The notes under the pieces were generated by a model. The model did not search any database and was not told where the DNA came from. It saw only the letters and a list, made by a program, of their open reading frames with translations. Positions 35,652-48,013 of a stretch of DNA of 64,000 nucleotides are shown in pieces. The stretch lies in sequence record LR597660; one strand, 5' to 3'. The position numbers and the translations under genes are program-made. Within the stretch, counting starts at the first letter, position 1; each line of letters opens with the position of its first letter. Source of the stretch: Escherichia phage T4_ev151.

Positions 35652-36869
<1,218 letters not shown>

Positions 36870-36873
<4 letters not shown>

Positions 36874-37746: not shown

Positions 37747-38243
37747 AAAGTTTTAATAACCTCTATAATATCGTCTTGAGAAAGACCGTTAATTAAAATA
37801 TGATGTTCAGCCGGAGATTTAGAAATTTTAAAGCACGCCGCAACATCTTCTGCCATATCCGATGCGCTACGATTTGGATTACTAATTCCAAGACGATGCT
37901 TTCCTGTCAAAGGATTAACGATGATATAGCATTTGCAGCTATTGATATGAACATTAGGTTGAGTCTGATTAATAAACACTTCACAATCATACTTAGCGAG
38001 TTGATTTTCTAAAAAGACTTTCATCTCCTCAACCGCATCAGGAAGCATATCACGGGCTTGCTCAAGACGACGATTTCGATATTCTTTAATGGTCGTTTTC
38101 CGCTTGACTTGCTTAGCTAAATCTTTCTTAAGATCGGTGATATATCCAACTCGACGATTTCCTTTGAATACAGAAATCCCATCTGTAGTATCACCGTATG
38201 CTTCAACGACCATTTCAGTAGTAATAAGCTGCAAATCCATCAT
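37737..38243 (-). CDS. alc: Alc, inhibitor of host transcription on cytosine-containing DNA
   Basis: 168 aa (T4 Alc is about 167 aa); positioned between rnlA and the spanins as in T4; RBS supplied by repeat copy B. Confidence 0.75.
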   Translation of the reverse strand: MMDLQLITTEMVVEAYGDTTDGISVFKGNRRVGYITDLKKDLAKQVKRKTTIKEYRNRRLEQARDMLPDAVEEMKVFLENQLAKYDCEVFINQTQPNVHINSCKCYIIVNPLTGKHRLGISNPNRSASDMAEDVAACFKISKSPAEHHILINGLSQDDIIEVIKTLCN

Positions 38244-38247
38244 AAAG

Positions 38248-38301
38248 TCCTCATGTTATGTCAGTAAGACTACTATAACACAACACGAGGGACTTGTAAA
38301 C
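38248..38301 (-). repeat. 54-bp exact repeat, copy B: early promoter, leader and Shine-Dalgarno cassette upstream of alc
   Basis: Identical to 24615-24668; lies between the rnlA stop (38305) and the alc ATG (38243). Confidence 0.85.
38272..38301 (-). promoter_or_regulatory. Sigma70-type T4 early promoter inside repeat copy B
   Basis: -35 TTTACA (38300-38295), 17-nt spacer, -10 TATAGT (38277-38272). Confidence 0.65.
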
Positions 38302-38304
38302 AGC

Positions 38305-39892
<1,588 letters not shown>

Positions 39893-39900
39893 AATAAAAT

Positions 39901-39914
39901 GGGCCTTGCGGCCC
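39901..39914 (-). other. Hairpin GGGCC-TTGC-GGCCC between nrdB and denA
   Basis: 5-bp GC stem directly after the nrdB stop; followed on the minus strand by AUUUUAUUAUG (includes the denA start). Confidence 0.5.
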
Positions 39915-39919
39915 ACTCC

Positions 39920-41098
39920 TTAAAAGTATTTTTTAAAACTCATCATAACTTTATCATCAACATCATTATCAATCTGTGCAACAAGATAAGATGACAGTTC
40001 TACTTCTTGCGGCGCGGATTGAACATTATCAGAATTAAGGTATTCACGAATCCAAGGATATGGATGTTTAACCGGAGCATCGGTAATCGGGCATGGAAGA
40101 CCACACTGTTTCATACGAGATACAGTTAAGTAATCAATAAAGCTCCACATGCTATTTGTATTTAATCCAGGAACATCGCCATCTTTAAATAAATGAACTG
40201 CCCAATCTTTTTCTTGGCGGTTAACTTCCATGAAAATATCAACTGCTTCTTGTTCACACTCTTTGGCAATTTTAACCCATTCATCGCCATCAGTACCGGA
40301 TTGAAGTTGACGAATAATATATTGTGTACCTTTAAGATGAAGCTGCTCATCACGTGCAATAAATTTCATAATCTTCGCATTACCTTCCATGATTTCCATG
40401 TTCTTATGGAAGTTGAAAGTACATGCAAAGGATACATAAAAACGAATAGCTTCCAGAGCATTGATAACGTGCAGACAGAGATAAAGCGACTTCATCAGGT
40501 CTCGTTTACATTCTTCCAAATGAGTGAGACTGTTTGAATATGCTTCTAAATCATATTCATTTTCAGCAAAATAACTAAAGTTTTCTTTGGCGTTTTCCCA
40601 AATACGTGTCTTGTCCAGAACATCATCATAATAACGACCAATAGATTCAGCACGTTTCATGATAGCTTTATCTAATACAATCTCATCAAATACCTTTGAC
40701 GGATCAGTATAAAGATTTCGCATAATATGAGTGTATGAACGACTGTGAATGGTTTCACTAAAAGTCCATGTAGCAACCCATGTATCAAGGCTTGGGTCTG
40801 AAATCAATGACATAAGTACAGCAGACGGTGCACGACCCTGAATGCTATCCAGAAGTGATTGATACTTCAGATTATTAGTAAAAATATTCTGCTGATATTG
40901 AGGAAGCTTATTAAACTGTGCAGCATCCATCATTAAGTTTACTTCTTCAGGACGCCAGAAAAATGACAACTGCTTTTCGGTTAAATCTTCAAAAACTTTA
41001 TGACGTTGAATATCATAACGCGCAATACCAAGACCTGAACCAAAAAACATAGGTTCTTTTAAAACATCAACTGGATTTGTATTAAAAACTGTAGACAT
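39920..41098 (-). CDS. nrdB: Ribonucleotide reductase small subunit; continuous, no intron
   Basis: 392 aa from ATG 41098 (MSTVFNTNPVDVLKEPMFFGSG...); uninterrupted reading frame; track ORF starts 12 codons upstream. Confidence 0.92.
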   Translation of the reverse strand: MSTVFNTNPVDVLKEPMFFGSGLGIARYDIQRHKVFEDLTEKQLSFFWRPEEVNLMMDAAQFNKLPQYQQNIFTNNLKYQSLLDSIQGRAPSAVLMSLISDPSLDTWVATWTFSETIHSRSYTHIMRNLYTDPSKVFDEIVLDKAIMKRAESIGRYYDDVLDKTRIWENAKENFSYFAENEYDLEAYSNSLTHLEECKRDLMKSLYLCLHVINALEAIRFYVSFACTFNFHKNMEIMEGNAKIMKFIARDEQLHLKGTQYIIRQLQSGTDGDEWVKIAKECEQEAVDIFMEVNRQEKDWAVHLFKDGDVPGLNTNSMWSFIDYLTVSRMKQCGLPCPITDAPVKHPYPWIREYLNSDNVQSAPQEVELSSYLVAQIDNDVDDKVMMSFKKYF

Positions 41099-41829
41099 TA
41101 ATTTTTCCTCTTTAAAATTCTGCCGCGTTTCCAACCTGGCGGTATAATATCATCTTTACCTATAAGCGTGCATTCACTTCCATTATTAATCCATTTCTTA
41201 CCGCGGATTCCTTTATAATCTCTTGGTTGTATTTTATCAAACTTTGCATCAAGTTGATATGACCATCTAAATCCATAGGCATATTGAAATTTACCCTCAG
41301 CACAATATTTGATATTTGACCCGTTTCCATTAACTGACCTGGACGCTGCCGCAATAGAGTGAAAGGTTTCTATGAAATCCCCATCTAATGAGAATTTATG
41401 TATTTCGATAGATGGGCATGCATACCTATTCACGTTTGATACATGTTGTTTAGTTTCGTTTTTATGATGCTTGCCTAACATTCCTCTAGGATGAGGATTA
41501 TTTTTCCAATATTTCTTAAAGAAATCAGAATTAGCTTTAGCAAATAATTTTCTGTGCAAGCTATACAATCTGTTATTAATTCTATTACCAGCTTTATCTG
41601 TTACCATTAACGTTAACGCAGAGGCAAGCCCAAAATGGCCTTCATTTATCTTACATAGTAATAGATGCGCTATAAAATGTTCTCTAGCTGTTAATTCAAC
41701 TAAATTTTCTTTATCATCAGAACCTCCCATGCATTTAGGGACTATATGATGTGTCTCTTTATATTCAGATAAAGGTTCCCGAGCCTGAGCTCGGGAAATT
41801 AGGTCATTATAGATTTTTTGATAATTCAT
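41098..41829 (-). CDS. Free-standing HNH homing endonuclease (mobE-like position between nrdA and nrdB)
   Basis: 243 aa; HNH motif HHIVPKCMGGSDDKENLVELTAREHFIAH; ATG overlaps the nrdA stop and stop overlaps the nrdB ATG. Confidence 0.8.
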   Translation of the reverse strand: MNYQKIYNDLISRAQAREPLSEYKETHHIVPKCMGGSDDKENLVELTAREHFIAHLLLCKINEGHFGLASALTLMVTDKAGNRINNRLYSLHRKLFAKANSDFFKKYWKNNPHPRGMLGKHHKNETKQHVSNVNRYACPSIEIHKFSLDGDFIETFHSIAAASRSVNGNGSNIKYCAEGKFQYAYGFRWSYQLDAKFDKIQPRDYKGIRGKKWINNGSECTLIGKDDIIPPGWKRGRILKRKN

Positions 41830-44093
41830 TACAATTTACACGCTGCACAATCGTCGGCTTTAGGAGTTTCTATTTCATAATCATCAGTACCAGAACCATC
41901 ACGGGTATTATGATAATAGAAATTTTTAATGCCATAATACCATCCGTATAGCATGTCATCAATCATTATTGACATTGGAACCTTGCCTTTAGGGAAGATT
42001 TGGGGGTCATAGTATGTATTCGCTGAAGCTGATTGACATACCCATTTCAGCATAATAGCTACCTGCGTAAGATAAGGTTTATTACCTTTCTTAGCTAATT
42101 TCCATGTATAATCATATAGGTCTATGTTATGTTCAATATTGGGCACGACTTGATTAAAGGAACCCTCTTTTGATTCTTTAACAGAGACTGGTCCACGTGG
42201 AGGCTCGATACCGTTTGTACTGTTAGAAACTTGGGAAGATGACTCACATGGCATAAGTGCTGATAGTGTGCTATTACGGATGCCAAAGAGCTTAAGGTCT
42301 TCCCGCAGCGACGACCAGTCACAAACGTATTTTGGAGCTGCGATTTGGTCAATCTTTTTATTGTACCAGTCGATAGGTAATTCGCCTCGAGACCAACGAG
42401 TGTCTGAATAATATTCGCAAGGTCCTTTTTCTTTGGCGAGCTTAATGGATGCTTTAATGAGTCCATACTGTAATCTCTCAAATAGTTCATGTGTTAAATC
42501 GTTAGCATCTTCATAAGAAGCAAAGTTACTTGCCAACCAAGCTGCATAGTTAGTAACACCTACACCGAGGTTACGACGCTTTTTAGCTTTTTCTGCTTCA
42601 GGAACCGGATATCCTTGGTAATCCAAAAGATTATCAAGAGCACGAACCTGGACTTCTGCCAATTCATTAATTTTATCTTGGTCTTGCCAGTCAAAATTAT
42701 CCAGTACGAATGCAGAGAGAGTACACAATCCAATTTCAGCATCAGGACTATTCACATCATTTGTTGGAATAGCAATTTCACAACACAAGTTACTCTGACG
42801 AATAGGTGCCTTTTCACGAATAAACGGAGTATAGTTATTCGTATTATCAATGAACTGCACATAAATCCTTGCGGTTCCTGAACGTTCAGTCATGAGCAAT
42901 TCAAATAGTTCACGGGCTTTAATACGCTTTTTACGAATATTAGGGTCTTTTTCTGCTGCTTCGTATAATTCACGGAAACGGTTTTGGTCTTTAAAATAAG
43001 AATAATAAAGCTCGCCACCCATTTCATGTGGACTGAACAAAGTAATGTAATCGTTCTTTCCGAATCGTTCCATCATCAAATCATTCAGTTGAACACCATA
43101 ATCCATATGACGAATGCGGTTTTCTTCTACGCCTTTGTTATTTTTCAAAACAAGAAGATTTTCAACTTCCAAATGCCAAATAGGATAATAAGCAGTAGCA
43201 GCGCCGCCACGAATTCCACCCTGTGAGCATGATTTAACAGCAGTCTGAAAATGTTTCCAAAAAGGAATAACACCAGTATGGCGTACTTCACCCATGCCAA
43301 TCTTAGAACCTTCAGCACGAATCATACCAACGTTAATACCAATTCCAGCACGTTTAGAGATATATTCAACAATTGAAGCGGAAGCCTTATTGATAGACTT
43401 CAATGAATCTCCTGCCTCAATAACAACGCATGAACTAAACTGTCGAGTCGGAGTACGACAACCAGCCATAATAGGAGTTGGCAGTGAAATCTGTCGAGTA
43501 GATACTGCTTCATAAAAACGAATAACATGTTTTAATCTGTCAACAGGTTCATCTTGATGCAATGCCATTCCAATAGTCATAAATGCAAACTGTGGAGTTT
43601 CATAAATTTGACCAGTGGTTTTATCTTTAACGAGATATTTTTCTTTTAATTGCATCGCCCCGGAATAAGTAAATTCCATATCCCGCTCGTGCTTAATTTT
43701 TGATTCTAAAAATGTAATTTCTTCTGCAGAATATTTTGACAACAATTCAGGGTCGTATTTACCTTCATTTACACAGTAAGAAATATGGTCAATAAATGAA
43801 CGTGGTTCATATTGTCCGTAAACATGCTTACGAAGAGCAAACATTAAACAGCGTGCAGCTACGTATTGATAATCAGGCTCTTCAACTGAAATAGAATTCG
43901 CAGCAGCCTTAATTACAATGGTTTGAATGTCATCAGTGGTCATTCCATCACGGAGATATGATTTAATATTTTCATATAATTCATAAGGATCTACAGATGT
44001 TCCTTCAGCTGCCCAAGATAAAACTTTAATAATTTTTTGCGGGTCAAAGCTCTGAGAAACACCACTACTTTTGATAACATTAATTAATTGCAT
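41829..44093 (-). CDS. nrdA: Ribonucleotide reductase large subunit
   Basis: 754 aa, same length as T4 NrdA; N-terminal ATP-cone, catalytic region including NLCCEI. Confidence 0.95.
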   Translation of the reverse strand: MQLINVIKSSGVSQSFDPQKIIKVLSWAAEGTSVDPYELYENIKSYLRDGMTTDDIQTIVIKAAANSISVEEPDYQYVAARCLMFALRKHVYGQYEPRSFIDHISYCVNEGKYDPELLSKYSAEEITFLESKIKHERDMEFTYSGAMQLKEKYLVKDKTTGQIYETPQFAFMTIGMALHQDEPVDRLKHVIRFYEAVSTRQISLPTPIMAGCRTPTRQFSSCVVIEAGDSLKSINKASASIVEYISKRAGIGINVGMIRAEGSKIGMGEVRHTGVIPFWKHFQTAVKSCSQGGIRGGAATAYYPIWHLEVENLLVLKNNKGVEENRIRHMDYGVQLNDLMMERFGKNDYITLFSPHEMGGELYYSYFKDQNRFRELYEAAEKDPNIRKKRIKARELFELLMTERSGTARIYVQFIDNTNNYTPFIREKAPIRQSNLCCEIAIPTNDVNSPDAEIGLCTLSAFVLDNFDWQDQDKINELAEVQVRALDNLLDYQGYPVPEAEKAKKRRNLGVGVTNYAAWLASNFASYEDANDLTHELFERLQYGLIKASIKLAKEKGPCEYYSDTRWSRGELPIDWYNKKIDQIAAPKYVCDWSSLREDLKLFGIRNSTLSALMPCESSSQVSNSTNGIEPPRGPVSVKESKEGSFNQVVPNIEHNIDLYDYTWKLAKKGNKPYLTQVAIMLKWVCQSASANTYYDPQIFPKGKVPMSIMIDDMLYGWYYGIKNFYYHNTRDGSGTDDYEIETPKADDCAACKL

Positions 44094-44410
44094 AAGTCCT
44101 CAACTTGAAAATCGTCTTTAAACAATCGGTTAACTATATGAGCTATTATATCACCATGACACGGCTTTGGTTTACATGTGCATCCTAGCCTCATTCCACG
44201 TAAAGGCTCTAAATGTGCTTTAGTTATTTCTCCGGATTTAATTCGACGTATAAAATCTTTTTTGAATAATTCAATGGCAGCCGGAAGGCTGCCAGCATCT
44301 TTACCGACGTAATTTCCCCAAAATGTACCGCGGTGAATATTAACATCAAAGTCGGATTTATATTTATTCACTACCCGGCATAGACGGCCCGCGCGGTGAT
44401 AATTCGGCAT
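44084..44410 (-). CDS. Hypothetical protein, 108 aa (nrdA.1 position)
   Basis: ORF overlapping the nrdA start; C-x-C...C-H cluster. Confidence 0.55.
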
Positions 44411-44627
44411 ATTGTTTTTCCGTTAAAACAGTAATATCATAATAACAATCAGAAGAAGTTTTAACTGTAGAAATTTTATTATCAAAATACTCACGAGTCA
44501 TTTTATGAGTATAATATTTTTTGCCATAAATGATAATAGGCTGATTTGGTCCTGGAACTTCTAACTCACTTGGGTTAGGAAGTGTAAAAAGAACTACACC
44601 AGAAGTATCTTTAAATCGTAAAATCAT
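44364..44627 (-). CDS. Hypothetical protein, 87 aa (nrdA.2 position)
   Basis: ORF downstream of td exon 2. Confidence 0.5.
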
Positions 44628-44650
44628 AAATCCTCACAATTAAATTAAAA

Positions 44651-44962
44651 TTACACCGCCATTTTTCCTTTCAAGACGCCGTGGGACTGATAATCTTTGA
44701 GAACGAAATCTTTAGGCCTGAGTTTAAGAATGTATTCCAATTGTTCTTTAGTAGAAAGATAGCGGAATTTATAAGGCAATCCGCCTATTACCAGTTCACA
44801 AAGCTCTTTAGGTTCACGACGCAAAATTTCTTTACATTGTTCTACGTGATTCATATAGATATGAGTATTACCGCCAGAAAATATCAAATCTCCAGGAATA
44901 AGATTACACATCTTAGCTACAATATGAACTAACGCAGCATATGATGCAATATTAAATGGAAG
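44651..44962 (-). CDS. td: Thymidylate synthase, exon 2 (C-terminal 103 aa)
   Basis: Begins CTTCCATTTAAT (LPFNIASYAAL...) directly after the intron terminal G at 44963; the track ORF Met is the last intron codon. Confidence 0.88.
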   Translation of the reverse strand, partial: LPFNIASYAALVHIVAKMCNLIPGDLIFSGGNTHIYMNHVEQCKEILRREPKELCELVIGGLPYKFRYLSTKEQLEYILKLRPKDFVLKDYQSHGVLKGKMAV

Positions 44963-45978
44963 CATTATGTTCAGATAAGGTCGTTAATCTTACCCCGGAA
45001 TTATATCCAGCTGCATGTCACCATGCAGATCAGACTATATCTCCAACTTGTTAAAGCAAGTTGTCTATCGTTTCGAGTCACTTGACCCTACTCCCCAAAG
45101 GGATAGTCGTTAGGCATTTATGTAGAACCAATTCCATTTATCAGATTTTACACGATAAGTAACTAATCCAGACGAAATTTTAAAATGTCTAGCTGCATCT
45201 GCTGCACAATCAAAAATAACCCCATCACATGAAATCTTTTTAATATTACTAGGCTTTTTACCTTTCATCTTTTCTGATATTTTAGATTTAGTTATGTCTG
45301 AATGCTTATGATTAAAGAATGAATTATTTTCACCTGAACGATTTCTGCATTTACTACAAGTATAAGCAGAAGTTTGTATGCGAACACCGCACTTACAAAA
45401 CTTATGGGTTTCTGGATTCCAACGCCCGTTTTTACTTCCGGGTTTACTGTAAAGAGCTTTCCGACCATCAGGTCCAAGTTTAAGCATCTTAGCTTTAACA
45501 GTTTCAGAACGTTTCTTAATAATTTCTTCTTTTAATGGATGCGTAGAACATGTATCACCAAACGTTGCATCAGCAATATTGTATCCATTAATTTTAGAAT
45601 TAAGCTCTTTAATCCAAAAATTTTCTCGTTCAATAATCAAATCTTTCTCATATGGAATTTCTTCCAAAATAGAACATTCAAACACATTACCATGTTTGTT
45701 AAAAGACCTCTGAAGCTTTATAGAAGAATGGCATCCTTTTTCTAAATCTTTAAAATGCCTCTTCCATCTCTTTTCAAAATCTTTAGCACTTCCTACATAT
45801 ACTTTATTGTTTAAAGTATTTTTAATCTGATAAATTCCGCTTTTCATAAATACCTCTTTAAATATAGAAGTATTTATTAAAGGGCAGTCCTACAATTTAG
45901 CACGGGATTGTCTACTAGAGAGGTTCCCCGTTTAGATAGATTACAAGTATAAGTCACCTTATACTCAGGCCTCAATTA
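44963..45978 (-). mobile_element. Group I self-splicing intron in td (1016 bp) carrying the I-TevI ORF
   Basis: 5' end TAATTGAGGCCTGAGTATAAGGTGACTTATACTTGTAATC after exon 1 ...GATGTTTTCTTGGGT; 3' end ...CATAATG; length 1016 bp as I recall for the T4 td intron. Confidence 0.88.
45110..45847 (-). CDS. I-TevI: Intron-encoded GIY-YIG homing endonuclease I-TevI
   Basis: 245 aa; MKSGIYQIKNTLNNKVYVGSAKDFEKRWKRHFKDLEKG...; lies inside the td intron. Confidence 0.93.
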   Translation of the reverse strand: MKSGIYQIKNTLNNKVYVGSAKDFEKRWKRHFKDLEKGCHSSIKLQRSFNKHGNVFECSILEEIPYEKDLIIERENFWIKELNSKINGYNIADATFGDTCSTHPLKEEIIKKRSETVKAKMLKLGPDGRKALYSKPGSKNGRWNPETHKFCKCGVRIQTSAYTCSKCRNRSGENNSFFNHKHSDITKSKISEKMKGKKPSNIKKISCDGVIFDCAADAARHFKISSGLVTYRVKSDKWNWFYINA

Positions 45979-46527
45979 ACCCAAGAAAACATCTACTGAT
46001 CGTTGATACCACTGCAAATCCAAATAGCCATTACGCACATTAAACTGATAGAACATATGACAAGGCGGTAATGCCATCTGCTTGAGTTCAGCTGGATTCC
46101 ATGCTGAAACAATTTGACGCCTATCATTTGGCAATTTTTTAATACGATCAACAACTTCTATAATTTGGTCTACACCGCCAAAATCGCGCCATTGTTTTCC
46201 ATAAATTGGACCAAGTTCACCGCTATGGTATCCTAAATCTTTTGCTTGATTTTCGTAATTTTCATCCCAGACTGTTTTGCCTTGGATTAACGAATCATGC
46301 TGAATTACTCGTAAATCATTGACATTTGTGCTTCCCGATAAAAACCATATTAGCTCAGCAATGCAAGCTTTCCAGGCGAGCTTTTTAGTTGTTACTGCAG
46401 GAAAACCTTTACTTAAATCCCAGCGTAATTTAGTACCGAACAAAGCAATTGTTCCTGTGCCCGTTCGGTCATCGGTTTCATAGCCATTTTCAAAAATGTC
46501 TTTAATTAAATCTTGGTATTGTTTCAT
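45979..46527 (-). CDS. td: Thymidylate synthase, exon 1 (N-terminal 183 aa)
   Basis: MKQYQDLIKDIFENGYETDDRTGTGTIALFG...; ends ...DVFLG at the 5' splice site; exon 1 + exon 2 = 286 aa. Confidence 0.9.
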
Positions 46528-46572
46528 TTAGTACCTTATATAAATTATAATACATTTTATGAAGCTAAATAA

Positions 46573-46920
46573 TCAATACGGTTTAGCATCAAATTTTCTC
46601 TCAATTTCAGGCGTGAAATATAATTCTTTACCGCGTTTGGAAAAGCGACCAATAATATGATAATTATTCTCATCAAACGCGATATTACCAATATCCATAG
46701 CTTTCAACCAAATATCGATATTTCTATCCAGCTTTATATCAAAATTCCAATACGGAGAACTATTACCGAAAATACTACAAGCGGATTCAGTGAAACAGCT
46801 ACTATAAATCTTGTCTTTAGGAACTACTAATTGATAGACACCTTTAATAAACTGAGGACCTTGCCATTTTGGCTGTTTCACGTCTTTTTCTAATAGAATA
46901 GGGTAATAATTAAAATTCAT
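46573..46920 (-). CDS. Hypothetical protein, 115 aa, inserted between frd and td
   Basis: ATG at 46920 (MNFNYYPILLEKDVKQPKWQGPQFIKGVY...); track ORF starts at an upstream GTG. Confidence 0.6.
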   Translation of the reverse strand: MNFNYYPILLEKDVKQPKWQGPQFIKGVYQLVVPKDKIYSSCFTESACSIFGNSSPYWNFDIKLDRNIDIWLKAMDIGNIAFDENNYHIIGRFSKRGKELYFTPEIERKFDAKPY

Positions 46921-46940
46921 ATTTTCCGCCACGCGTTATT

Positions 46941-47761
<821 letters not shown>

Positions 47762-47770
47762 TATATTTCC

Positions 47771-48013
47771 TCAAACAGACTTTTTCACAATTTTCCAATC
47801 AGCTTTAAACTGATCGACGTCAGAGTGATAAATCCAAAATCCTGCGCTTTCACCGTCTTCATAAAGCGGACACCCATCACATTCATCTTCCCATCCCATG
47901 CCACGTAAAAGGTGTTCAGCTTTTTCAACAAGTTCAGAATCTTTACCGATGATATTAAAATACCATTTACCTTTAACTTCTGAATCTTTGATGCTCTGGC
48001 GTTGTAATCTCAT
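47771..48013 (-). CDS. Hypothetical protein, 80 aa (frd.x cluster)
   Basis: ORF with RBS AAGGAG; contains C..C.....C.GC pair. Confidence 0.55.
   Translation of the reverse strand: MRLQRQSIKDSEVKGKWYFNIIGKDSELVEKAEHLLRGMGWEDECDGCPLYEDGESAGFWIYHSDVDQFKADWKIVKKSV

Follow-up and report, generated by a model that had tools for sequence, protein, structure and literature searches.

The RB3-type allele of the homing endonuclease gene mobE lies between nrdA and an uninterrupted nrdB in Escherichia phage T4_ev151

The 243-codon open reading frame (ORF) that separates nrdA from nrdB in Escherichia phage T4_ev151 is mobE, an already described gene whose exact allele is present in GenBank under that name. 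The frame was analysed within a window of 64,000 nucleotides (sequence record LR597660), and the best explanation of the whole, which we consider very probable, is that it represents the RB3-type allele of mobE, encoding a free-standing HNH homing endonuclease that would act by the mechanism proposed below. The ORF (41098-41829; Table 1) includes the string HHIVPKCMGGSDDKENLVELTAREHFIAH, quoted in an earlier sequence-only reading as part of an HNH endonuclease wedged between nrdA and nrdB with TAATG overlaps; the sequence bears out this description, although the reading had not recognised the known gene. The top tblastn match of the ORF was RB3 mobE (AY262130.2 and KM606994; 99.6% amino-acid identity), from which it differs by one mismatch in 732 nt and one amino acid (V76 in the window versus A76 in RB3), and it also matched phrog_655 'homing endonuclease' (E 1e-57). 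RB3 mobE was reportedly first described by Sandegren et al. in 2005.

In the annotations of T4, T6 and RB3, mobE occupies the same slot between nrdA and nrdB, and the window gene has the same orientation. The earlier reading had implied that the endonuclease is present instead of the nrdB intron, a contrast that does not hold, as T4 has mobE at exactly the same position plus the intron. On the minus strand TAATG stands at both junctions, with a one-base overlap on either side: upstream, the TAA of nrdA (41831-41829) meets the ATG of mobE (41829-41827), and downstream, the TAA of mobE (41100-41098) meets the ATG of nrdB (41098-41096). RB3 mobE, likewise of 243 codons, has the same overlaps with both genes. 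At the nrdA junction positions 41831-41826 read TAATGA, so that the mobE AUG overlaps the nrdA stop; such a UAAUGA overlap with nrdA, together with the nrdA-nrdB location, has been given for mobE (PMC2988022).

Table 1. Features of the nrdA-mobE-nrdB region (window positions)
Feature	Position	Strand	Description and basis
nrdA, aerobic ribonucleotide reductase large subunit	41829..44093	minus	754 aa; Pfam ATP-cone, Ribonuc_red_lgN, Ribonuc_red_lgC; T4-collinear
nrdA last 30 nt	41829..41858	minus	GCCGACGATTGTGCAGCGTGTAAATTGTAA = ADDCAACKL*; variable-site table, junctions of 17 phages
mobE, RB3-type allele, free-standing HNH homing endonuclease gene	41098..41829	minus	243 aa
Shared HNH catalytic module, mobE codons 1-62	41644..41829	minus	~97% nt identity to T4 mobE over first 186 nt
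Terminator-like hairpin in mobE 5' end	41776..41797	minus	9-bp stem, 4-nt loop, CCUUUAUCU tail; terminator scan
Allele-specific 3' three-quarters of mobE, codons 63-243	41098..41643	minus	no counterpart in T4 or T6 mobE
NUMOD1 motif, mobE aa 147-177	41299-41391	minus	Pfam
nrdB, ribonucleotide reductase small subunit	39920..41098	minus	392 aa, uninterrupted; Pfam Ribonuc_red_sm
Position homologous to T4-MobE nick sites, nrdB nt 122-126	40973..40977	minus	codon 42 = AAG Lys; 17-phage alignment
Vacant nrdB group I intron insertion site	40422..40423	minus	exon 1 end = nrdB nt 676; T4 and RB3 alignments, blastn breakpoints
GC-rich hairpin between nrdB and denA, putative terminator	39900..39915	minus	GGGCCGCAAGGCCC

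The window and T4 alleles share the slot, the UAAUGA overlap, near-identical first 62 codons and terminator hairpin, and the same nrdA 3' end, yet residues 63-243 are unrelated. By BLASTP, residues 1-105 of the window protein aligned with RB55/T4-type MobE at 63% identity, being near-identical through about residue 57; no protein similarity to T4-type MobE was detected by BLASTP beyond residue ~105, and alignment and blastn found no DNA similarity to T4 within mobE past window position 41660. The C-terminal, presumed DNA-binding half thus lacks homology to its T4 counterpart and corresponds to the RB3 allele: Pfam identified NUMOD1 in the window protein versus NUMOD3 in T4/T6-type MobE, and where T4 has NUMOD3 repeats plus a CPHC...C motif, the window has NUMOD1 plus a C-terminal beta-hairpin module that ends ...IPPGWKRGRILKRKN. 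No mention of the unrelated C-terminal half of RB3-type MobE was found in PMC2790892 or PMC2988022. Among the full texts covered by a literature search, no paper combined mobE with NUMOD1.

An AlphaFold model of the window MobE, built from a 47-sequence alignment, reached a pLDDT of 89.7, and its best structural match in the PDB was I-HmuI (1u3e; probability 0.98, but a low global TM-score of 0.21-0.29), an HNH nicking enzyme of Bacillus phage SPO1. Like the window protein, I-HmuI joins an HNH domain at its N-terminus to an elongated array of small DNA-binding modules, NUMOD-like elements among them, and Pfam PF22083 was found in homologues of the window MobE; unlike it, I-HmuI is intron-encoded rather than free-standing, and the two share 14% identity. 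A sequence search of the PDB returned a single marginal HNH-motif match and nothing else.

The HNH motif, which aligns with that of a group II intron maturase, scored 19.3 bits against Pfam HNH (PF01844), slightly below the cut-off of 21.4, while T6 and T4-type proteins, with a motif almost identical to the window's, scored 24.4-24.6 bits. It shows no sign of the degeneration that would have spoken against a working nuclease: the catalytic His/Asn/His residues are intact, and window residues H27, H28, N42, E50, H51 and H55 occupy columns that are invariant across the 47 homologues aligned. Furthermore, pN/pS between the two haplogroups of RB3-type mobE is 0.10-0.15 across the whole protein, from which the allele is judged to be under purifying selection, and of eight carriers sampled, seven retain an uninterrupted reading frame. 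Because of the invariant catalytic residues, a pN/pS of about 0.1 and the identical copies amid divergent flanks described next, the window mobE looks active.

The population-wide distribution was determined in the GenBank phage collection, as few Tequatroviruses were found in the IMG/VR scans; the counts include GenBank/RefSeq duplicates and represent records, not independent lineages, the near-identical isolates RB3, 5, 6, 7, 9 and 10 being among them. RB3-type mobE is present in 54 records and the 3' part of T4/T6-type mobE in 71, while 377 have an empty, T2-like nrdA-nrdB junction. The arrangement is therefore sporadic rather than universal and static. Gelderlandvirus and Gaprivervirus phages carry full-length homologues (60-73% amino-acid identity) in the corresponding slot.

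Across the window, RB3, Jbel and Sf23, differences within mobE amount to 0-1 of 732 nt, as against 1.5-3.0% in nrdA and 2.7-14.6% in nrdB exon 1. The tract of identity around mobE reaches 24-210 nt into nrdA and 47-146 nt into nrdB before it breaks off. A nuclease that spreads itself and its flank, as the sequence-only reading had suggested, fits the sporadic distribution, the purifying selection and the identical mobE amid divergent flanks; the high general recombination of T-even phages, acting without nuclease-driven homing, could be an alternative source of that last pattern. The broader suggestion of intronless homing by a free-standing nuclease is also supported, being the published function of mobE at the nrdA-nrdB locus for the T4 allele: in T4 x T2 crosses, T4 mobE showed super-Mendelian inheritance with co-conversion of flanking DNA, both the mobility and its dependence on the HNH motif being demonstrated for the T4 allele only (PMC2790892; review PMC2988022). 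Intronless homing by SegF and SegG of T4 is similar in that a free-standing nuclease gene between two essential genes directs a nearby cut in the genome lacking it, with flank co-conversion, but the Seg enzymes are of the GIY-YIG family and make double-strand breaks, while MobE is an HNH enzyme for whose T4 allele only a nick has been detected.

The upstream flank retains a mark that may reflect such transfer. The GCCGACGATTGTGCAGCGTGTAAATTGTAA version of the nrdA end was found in all ten mobE-positive sequences compared, irrespective of allele, and GCTGAAGATTGTTCATCCTGTAAATTATGA (AEDCSSCKL*) in all seven empty-junction Tequatroviruses compared. A near-identical ADDCAAC end is native to empty-junction phages of another T4-like group, which makes a hitch-hiking donor flank likelier than an immunity change; the GCCGACGATTGTGCAGCGTGTAAATTGTAA end probably arrived together with mobE as part of its flank. 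Further upstream, window positions 41660-46530 are collinear with T4 (nrdA, nrdA.1, nrdA.2 and the intron-containing td; 96.7% over 4878 nt), and the ORF at 45110-45847 matched three I-TevI Pfam domains, which together corroborate the td intron and I-TevI that had been noted in the same phage.

Expression signals in and around mobE were searched. The hairpin near its 5' end lies some 30 nt past the start codon, folds as RNA at -16.7 kcal/mol (z = -2.6) and matches in sequence and position the weak intrinsic terminator that was mapped experimentally in T4 mobE, a gene co-transcribed with nrdA (PMC2790892); translational coupling of mobE to nrdA is a suggestion made in a review and not an experimental result (PMC2988022). 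When mobE and its surroundings were scanned for T4 promoters of the middle (MotA box) and late (TATAAATA) classes, one weak MotA-box-like site emerged, at 41171; sigma-70-like matches were at the level of shuffled expectation. The 3' end of T4 mobE contains a MotA-type middle promoter for nrdB (AATGCTTTA...TATGAT), but no equivalent was found in the window, and the 3' end of RB3-type mobE yielded no convincing nrdB promoter of the middle or late class. Expression of nrdB in the RB3-type arrangement is therefore not accounted for by the promoters found. Downstream of nrdB, the annotation of phage G50 places a putative transcriptional terminator at the position homologous to the nrdB-denA hairpin.

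The promoter content bears on whether mobE might persist as a domesticated or stranded gene, no longer an active nuclease and kept for nrdB expression signals or as a regulator or exclusion factor. For T4 mobE, Wilson and Edgell proposed that the internal nrdB middle promoter shields the gene from deletion, and they conceded a possible regulator role (PMC2790892); in addition, clean loss would be hard given the TAATG overlaps on both sides. Yet a strong nrdB promoter was not found inside the RB3-type allele, the low pN/pS across the whole protein and the invariant catalytic residues point to a protein-level function, and passive retention explains less well than recent spread why identical copies occur in divergent backgrounds and in only ~10% of related genomes. 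Domestication is accordingly regarded as improbable.

The preferred reading, an active homing endonuclease, would work as follows. mobE would have no promoter of its own and be transcribed from the nrdA promoters; the weak hairpin terminator, at mobE codons ~11-18, would attenuate read-through, and translation would be coupled to nrdA termination via the UAAUG overlap, terminator and coupling together holding nuclease levels low. The protein would be modular and I-HmuI-like, with a nicking domain of the HNH (beta-beta-alpha-metal) type at the N-terminus and, after it, an elongated DNA-binding half made up of a helical linker, a NUMOD1 helix-turn-helix and the C-terminal beta-hairpin module. 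During mixed infection MobE would nick or cut a mobE-less genome close to the nrdA/nrdB junction, and T4-type recombination-dependent repair would then copy mobE into the recipient along with a short flank, from a few tens to hundreds of bases long. For the RB3-type allele, activity and cutting place are inferred.

Downstream of mobE, nrdB starts by homology at the ATG at 41098 (MSTVFNT...), while the mechanically called ORF begins instead at a TTG at 41134. The continuous nrdB frame and the missing T4 intron, both noted earlier from the sequence, were confirmed: the window NrdB and the intronless T2H NrdB (392 aa) aligned without gaps at 92% identity, and blastn against T4 showed that the T4 nrdB intron (L001 5459-6058, ~600 nt) is absent from the window. 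Alignment with the intron-containing nrdB of T4, proposed in that reading, mapped the would-be insertion site to 40423|40422; the group I intron of ~0.6-1.1 kb that follows nrdB nt 676 in the T4/RB3 type, with I-TevIII, is not present. An Rfam scan of 38000-48000 at gathering thresholds gave zero matches and likewise missed the td group I intron, which T4 collinearity shows to be there; the scan is thus uninformative for intron calls, and the absence of the nrdB intron is based on the alignments.

Among about 500 records with nrdB in the GenBank phage collection, about 125 bear the intron, so the intronless gene is the common state among T4-like phages and the window is ordinary in that respect. 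T6, deposited as mobE-positive, likewise has no intron at the insertion site, as far as the 5' portion of nrdB that was sequenced shows. RB3, however, pairs the same mobE, one nucleotide different, with a nrdB group I intron carrying intact I-TevIII, and a precise loss of the intron from an RB3-like ancestor that had both elements would have been a notable event. This scenario was rejected as highly improbable. Not only is intronless nrdB the majority state, but the flanks of the window and RB3 differ (2.3% in nrdA and 14% in nrdB exon 1), and the exon 1 divergence together with a distinct hypervariable patch indicates two nrdB alleles rather than a parent and its deletion derivative. Moreover, mobE and the intron are distributed independently, the intron occurring in at least 12 of the 54 RB3-type carriers, near the expectation for independent assortment.

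The target of the RB3-type allele was considered in relation to that of T4 MobE, which nicks the nrdB of T2 at nt 122-126 in a manner dependent on HNH; no in vitro activity was obtained and an indirect role was not excluded by the authors (PMC2790892). In a 17-phage alignment, nrdB nt 91-150 of the window matches T2, the sensitive substrate, at every position (100% identity). In carriers of T4/T6-type mobE, substitutions are densely clustered at nrdB nt ~30-135, T4 itself having substitutions around the nick site that the window lacks, while in 50 of the 54 RB3-type carriers the same interval shows 95.5% or higher identity to the window. A comparison of RB3-type carriers with empty-junction phages, looking for marks of the target site, showed consistent fixed differences only in the last 27 nt of nrdA and in nrdB codon 2, and these did not point to a target.

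The RB3-type enzyme might still act on the same target, nicking nrdB nt 122-126 and tolerating or otherwise avoiding self-cutting. Wilson and Edgell proposed that the polymorphic nick region is read by the HNH module, which hardly differs between the two alleles, and they pooled RB3 with the other mobE-positive phages (PMC2790892). Target polymorphism need not be obligatory for self-immunity if other free-standing nucleases cut their own DNA. SegH and Hef reportedly did so in the work of Sandegren et al. (2005). Nevertheless, residues 63-243 are unrelated to those of T4/T6 MobE, with NUMOD1 in place of NUMOD3 repeats and a Cys/His motif, and the T4/T6-type substitution block is absent from most RB3-type carriers, the window being identical to T2; a shared target appears doubtful. 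Given the unrelated DNA-binding half and the T2-type sequence kept at the T4-MobE nick site, it is more likely that the recognition site of RB3-type MobE differs from that of T4 MobE.

Together, these observations allow a tentative joint reading, falling somewhat short of an even chance, in which the locus holds at least three mobE alleles (T4-, T6- and RB3-type) that have a common HNH cassette and 5' flank, carry swapped DNA-binding halves and compete with one another, the RB3-type allele recognising a different site. Aplg8 is a recombinant with RB3-type mobE beside a T6-type nrdB 5' end.

The presence of mobE at nrdA-nrdB, its overlap with nrdA, the internal terminator and the homing behaviour are already published, and the arrangement in the window is real but ordinary. 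What the present analysis adds, modestly, is a comparison across phages: identical mobE copies occur in divergent backgrounds, bordered by short stretches of flank that are also identical, the gene is under purifying selection, and the alleles have the catalytic module in common but not the DNA-binding half. The allele difference bears on the published self-avoidance model, which invokes substitutions around nrdB codon 42, as RB3-type carriers are without those substitutions. If the joint reading is true, RB3-type carriers would be open to super-invasion by T4/T6-type mobE through one crossover in the shared HNH-coding segment, recombinants such as Aplg8 and Ptacy1496 would be products of the allele contest, and the nrdA-nrdB locus would be a natural case of competing homing-endonuclease alleles.

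The nucleotide-metabolism cluster of the window is of T4 type and runs on the minus strand from td to rnlA, in the order tabulated below. As the sequence-only reading had stated, a 243-aa endonuclease ORF lies between nrdA and nrdB; from the ORF map and a reading of both junctions, TAATG was found on the coding strand at each end of it, with one base common to stop and start. The nrdB start was assigned by homology to the ATG at 41098 (the mechanical ORF list begins at an upstream TTG). Elsewhere in this region, two genes have no counterpart in T4. One is td.1 (46573-46920), which separates frd from td in T2 and T6 too (96.9% identity to the T6 copy); the other, a 106-aa ORF (36553-36873), separates pseT from pseT.1 and falls in a gap of ~315 nt in the alignment to T4.

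Features of the td-rnlA cluster in minus-strand order (window coordinates)
Feature	Position	Strand
td with intron and I-TevI	I-TevI ORF 45110-45847	minus
nrdA.2 and nrdA.1	between td and nrdA	minus
nrdA	41829-44093	minus
243-aa ORF (mobE)	41098-41829	minus
nrdB	39920-41098	minus
denA	39482-39916	minus
rnlA	38305-39465	minus

The uninterrupted nrdB was borne out: NrdB (392 aa) aligned without gaps to NrdB of intronless T2H (92% identity), and in blastn against the intron-containing nrdB of T4 the ~600-nt intron was cleanly missing, mapping the vacant insertion site to the exon junction 40423/40422. The claimed presence of the td intron and I-TevI in the same phage is supported by the I-TevI ORF and by collinearity with the intron-containing td of T4. 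Despite this collinearity, an Rfam search at the gathering threshold reported no group I intron at 44600-46600 (td), presumably as the I-TevI ORF separates the intron core farther than the Rfam model tolerates. The initial observation was confirmed in all its details.

The gene and its location are already known, its role is known or presumed, and GenBank holds this very allele under the name mobE: the ORF differs by 1 nt in 732 from the deposited mobE of RB3 (99.6% protein identity), and mobE occupies exactly the same position between nrdA and nrdB in T4. This characterised free-standing HNH homing endonuclease is, in T4, co-transcribed with nrdA and carries a weak intrinsic terminator soon after its AUG; in T4 x T2 crosses it is inherited at ~2x its input frequency in an HNH-dependent manner, causes a strand-specific nick at T2 nrdB nt 122-126 and carries along flanking DNA, the defunct nrdB intron included (Wilson and Edgell, PMC2790892). 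The Edgell review described a UAAUGA overlap of mobE with nrdA and suggested translational coupling of the two (PMC2988022). Both the terminator and the overlap have counterparts in the window, namely a hairpin at 41797-41776 (9-bp stem, 4-nt loop, -16.7 kcal/mol) and the same UAAUGA at the nrdA junction. T6 is an earlier deposited mobE-positive case, its insertion site being intronless in the sequenced 5' part of nrdB. The finding is thus not new, homing of mobE at nrdA-nrdB being already known.

The ORF is not degenerate: HNH residues H27, H28, N42, E50, H51 and H55 are invariant across 47 homologues, the frame is intact in seven of eight sampled carriers (in JoYop one nucleotide is missing close to the stop codon), and pN/pS between the two haplogroups is 0.10-0.15. 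Nor is the arrangement universal and static. Among records in the GenBank phage collection, 54 carry RB3-type mobE (the window's allele), 71 the T4/T6-type mobE 3' part and 377 an uninterrupted T2-like nrdA-nrdB junction. The nrdB intron is found in about 125 records, and at least 12, among the full-coverage matches listed, combine it with RB3-type mobE; since about a quarter of related records have the intron, independent assortment predicts ~13 such carriers. The commonest state of this allele is mobE with intronless nrdB, as in the window.

Across the window, RB3, Jbel and Sf23, mobE is identical or one base apart, the flanks differ by 1.5-3.0% (nrdA) and 2.7-14.6% (nrdB exon 1), and the stretch of identity reaches 24-210 nt into nrdA on one side and 47-146 nt into nrdB on the other. 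Identical mobE in divergent flanks is what recent transfer with short co-conversion tracts should leave behind and, with the published behaviour of T4 mobE, supports the intronless homing proposed by the sequence-only reading. At 60-73% aa identity, full-length relatives are found at this junction in phages of Gelderlandvirus (Melville) and Gaprivervirus (RZ) as well. In more distant T4-like phages (IMG/VR contigs L017, L019-L024, L029-L033 and L037) the junction holds other inserts, either ~170-500 nt or ~1.6 kb long. None resembles either MobE type except that of L030, in which 18 aa match the C-terminus of T6-type MobE. The junction is a general insertion hotspot.

The likeness of the window's mobE to that of T4 is confined to the first 186 nt (codons 1-62, HNH motif), where identity is ~97%; the DNA becomes unalignable at codon 63, and the proteins show no similarity past residue ~105. 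NUMOD3 repeats, with a CPHCGKK...C motif at the C-terminus, characterise T4- and T6-type MobE, whereas in the window's protein a NUMOD1 motif is found at aa 147-177 and the C-terminal module is a different one. Between T4 and T6 mobE, in turn, just the final ~250 nt are common, the middle being different. By these comparisons the locus holds at least three mobE alleles, which combine one catalytic cassette with exchangeable DNA-binding parts. A confident AlphaFold model of the window's MobE, built on 47 homologues (pLDDT 89.7), had the nicking homing endonuclease I-HmuI as its best PDB match (probability 0.98) with a low global TM-score, as would be expected for a flexibly linked string of modules.

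In the T4 reference NC_000866 (L001, 6717-7417), mobE (141 aa) and nrdB.1 (83 aa) are separate and can be joined only via two frame changes. RB55, of the T4 species, has a single 232-aa mobE ORF, and the same stretch is 2 nt shorter in other T4 records, so that the split is probably an old sequencing error. In T4/T6-type mobE, the 3' end also holds a middle promoter for nrdB with a clear MotA box (AATGCTTTA-N11-TATGAT), whereas the corresponding end of the window's allele (41140-41175) offers just a weak resemblance to it, GCACGCTTAT-N12-TATTAT at 41171.

The last 27 nt of nrdA have one version (ADDCAACKL*) in all 10 mobE-positive sequences compared, whichever the allele, and AEDCSSCKL* is the nrdA end in all seven empty-junction Tequatroviruses compared. 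Because a nearly identical ADDCAAC version is native to empty-junction phages of another T4-like group, the block is most simply read as donor flank that arrived with the element.

At the other flank, substitutions around nrdB codon 42 were proposed to shield mobE carriers from self-nicking (Wilson and Edgell, PMC2790892). In T4/T6-type carriers, substitutions are dense between nrdB nt ~30 and 135, a stretch that surrounds the mapped nick site. The window's nrdB nt 91-150, by contrast, match the nick-sensitive T2 sequence at every position (100% identity). Over a segment made up of the final 153 nt of mobE and nrdB nt 1-159, identity to the window is 95.5% or higher in 50 of the 54 carriers of the RB3-type allele. 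Judged from these sequences, the self-protection model does not hold for the RB3-type allele. Either RB3-type MobE would differ in specificity from T4 MobE or self-cutting would be tolerated; we favour the former because the DNA-binding half differs, and no target was deducible from the sequence comparisons. Two phages are exceptions among the RB3-type carriers: in Aplg8, RB3-type mobE directly adjoins an nrdB whose 5' end is of T6 type (nt 1-160, 98.8% identity to T6), and in Ptacy1496 it lies beside a partial T6/F1-type nrdB block (nt ~96-135); both junctions are recombinant arrangements. Although phage F1 has an empty junction, its nick site lies in a T6-like block.

Further into the otherwise conserved NrdB, a hypervariable patch (window 40499-40618; nrdB nt ~481-600, aa ~162-197) occurs in at least five mutually unalignable versions of differing length among 17 phages, irrespective of which mobE allele a phage carries and of whether it has the intron. 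The version seen in the window is found in just 14 records, all 100% identical. The patch could be a tolerant surface loop, a product of diversifying selection or another nuclease target.

Neither the modularity nor its bearing on self-immunity was found in PMC2790892 or PMC2988022, and a literature search for mobE with NUMOD1 was empty (the 2005 RB3 mobE paper lay outside its scope). The modularity of the alleles, with its consequence for the self-immunity model, is a small, testable addition.
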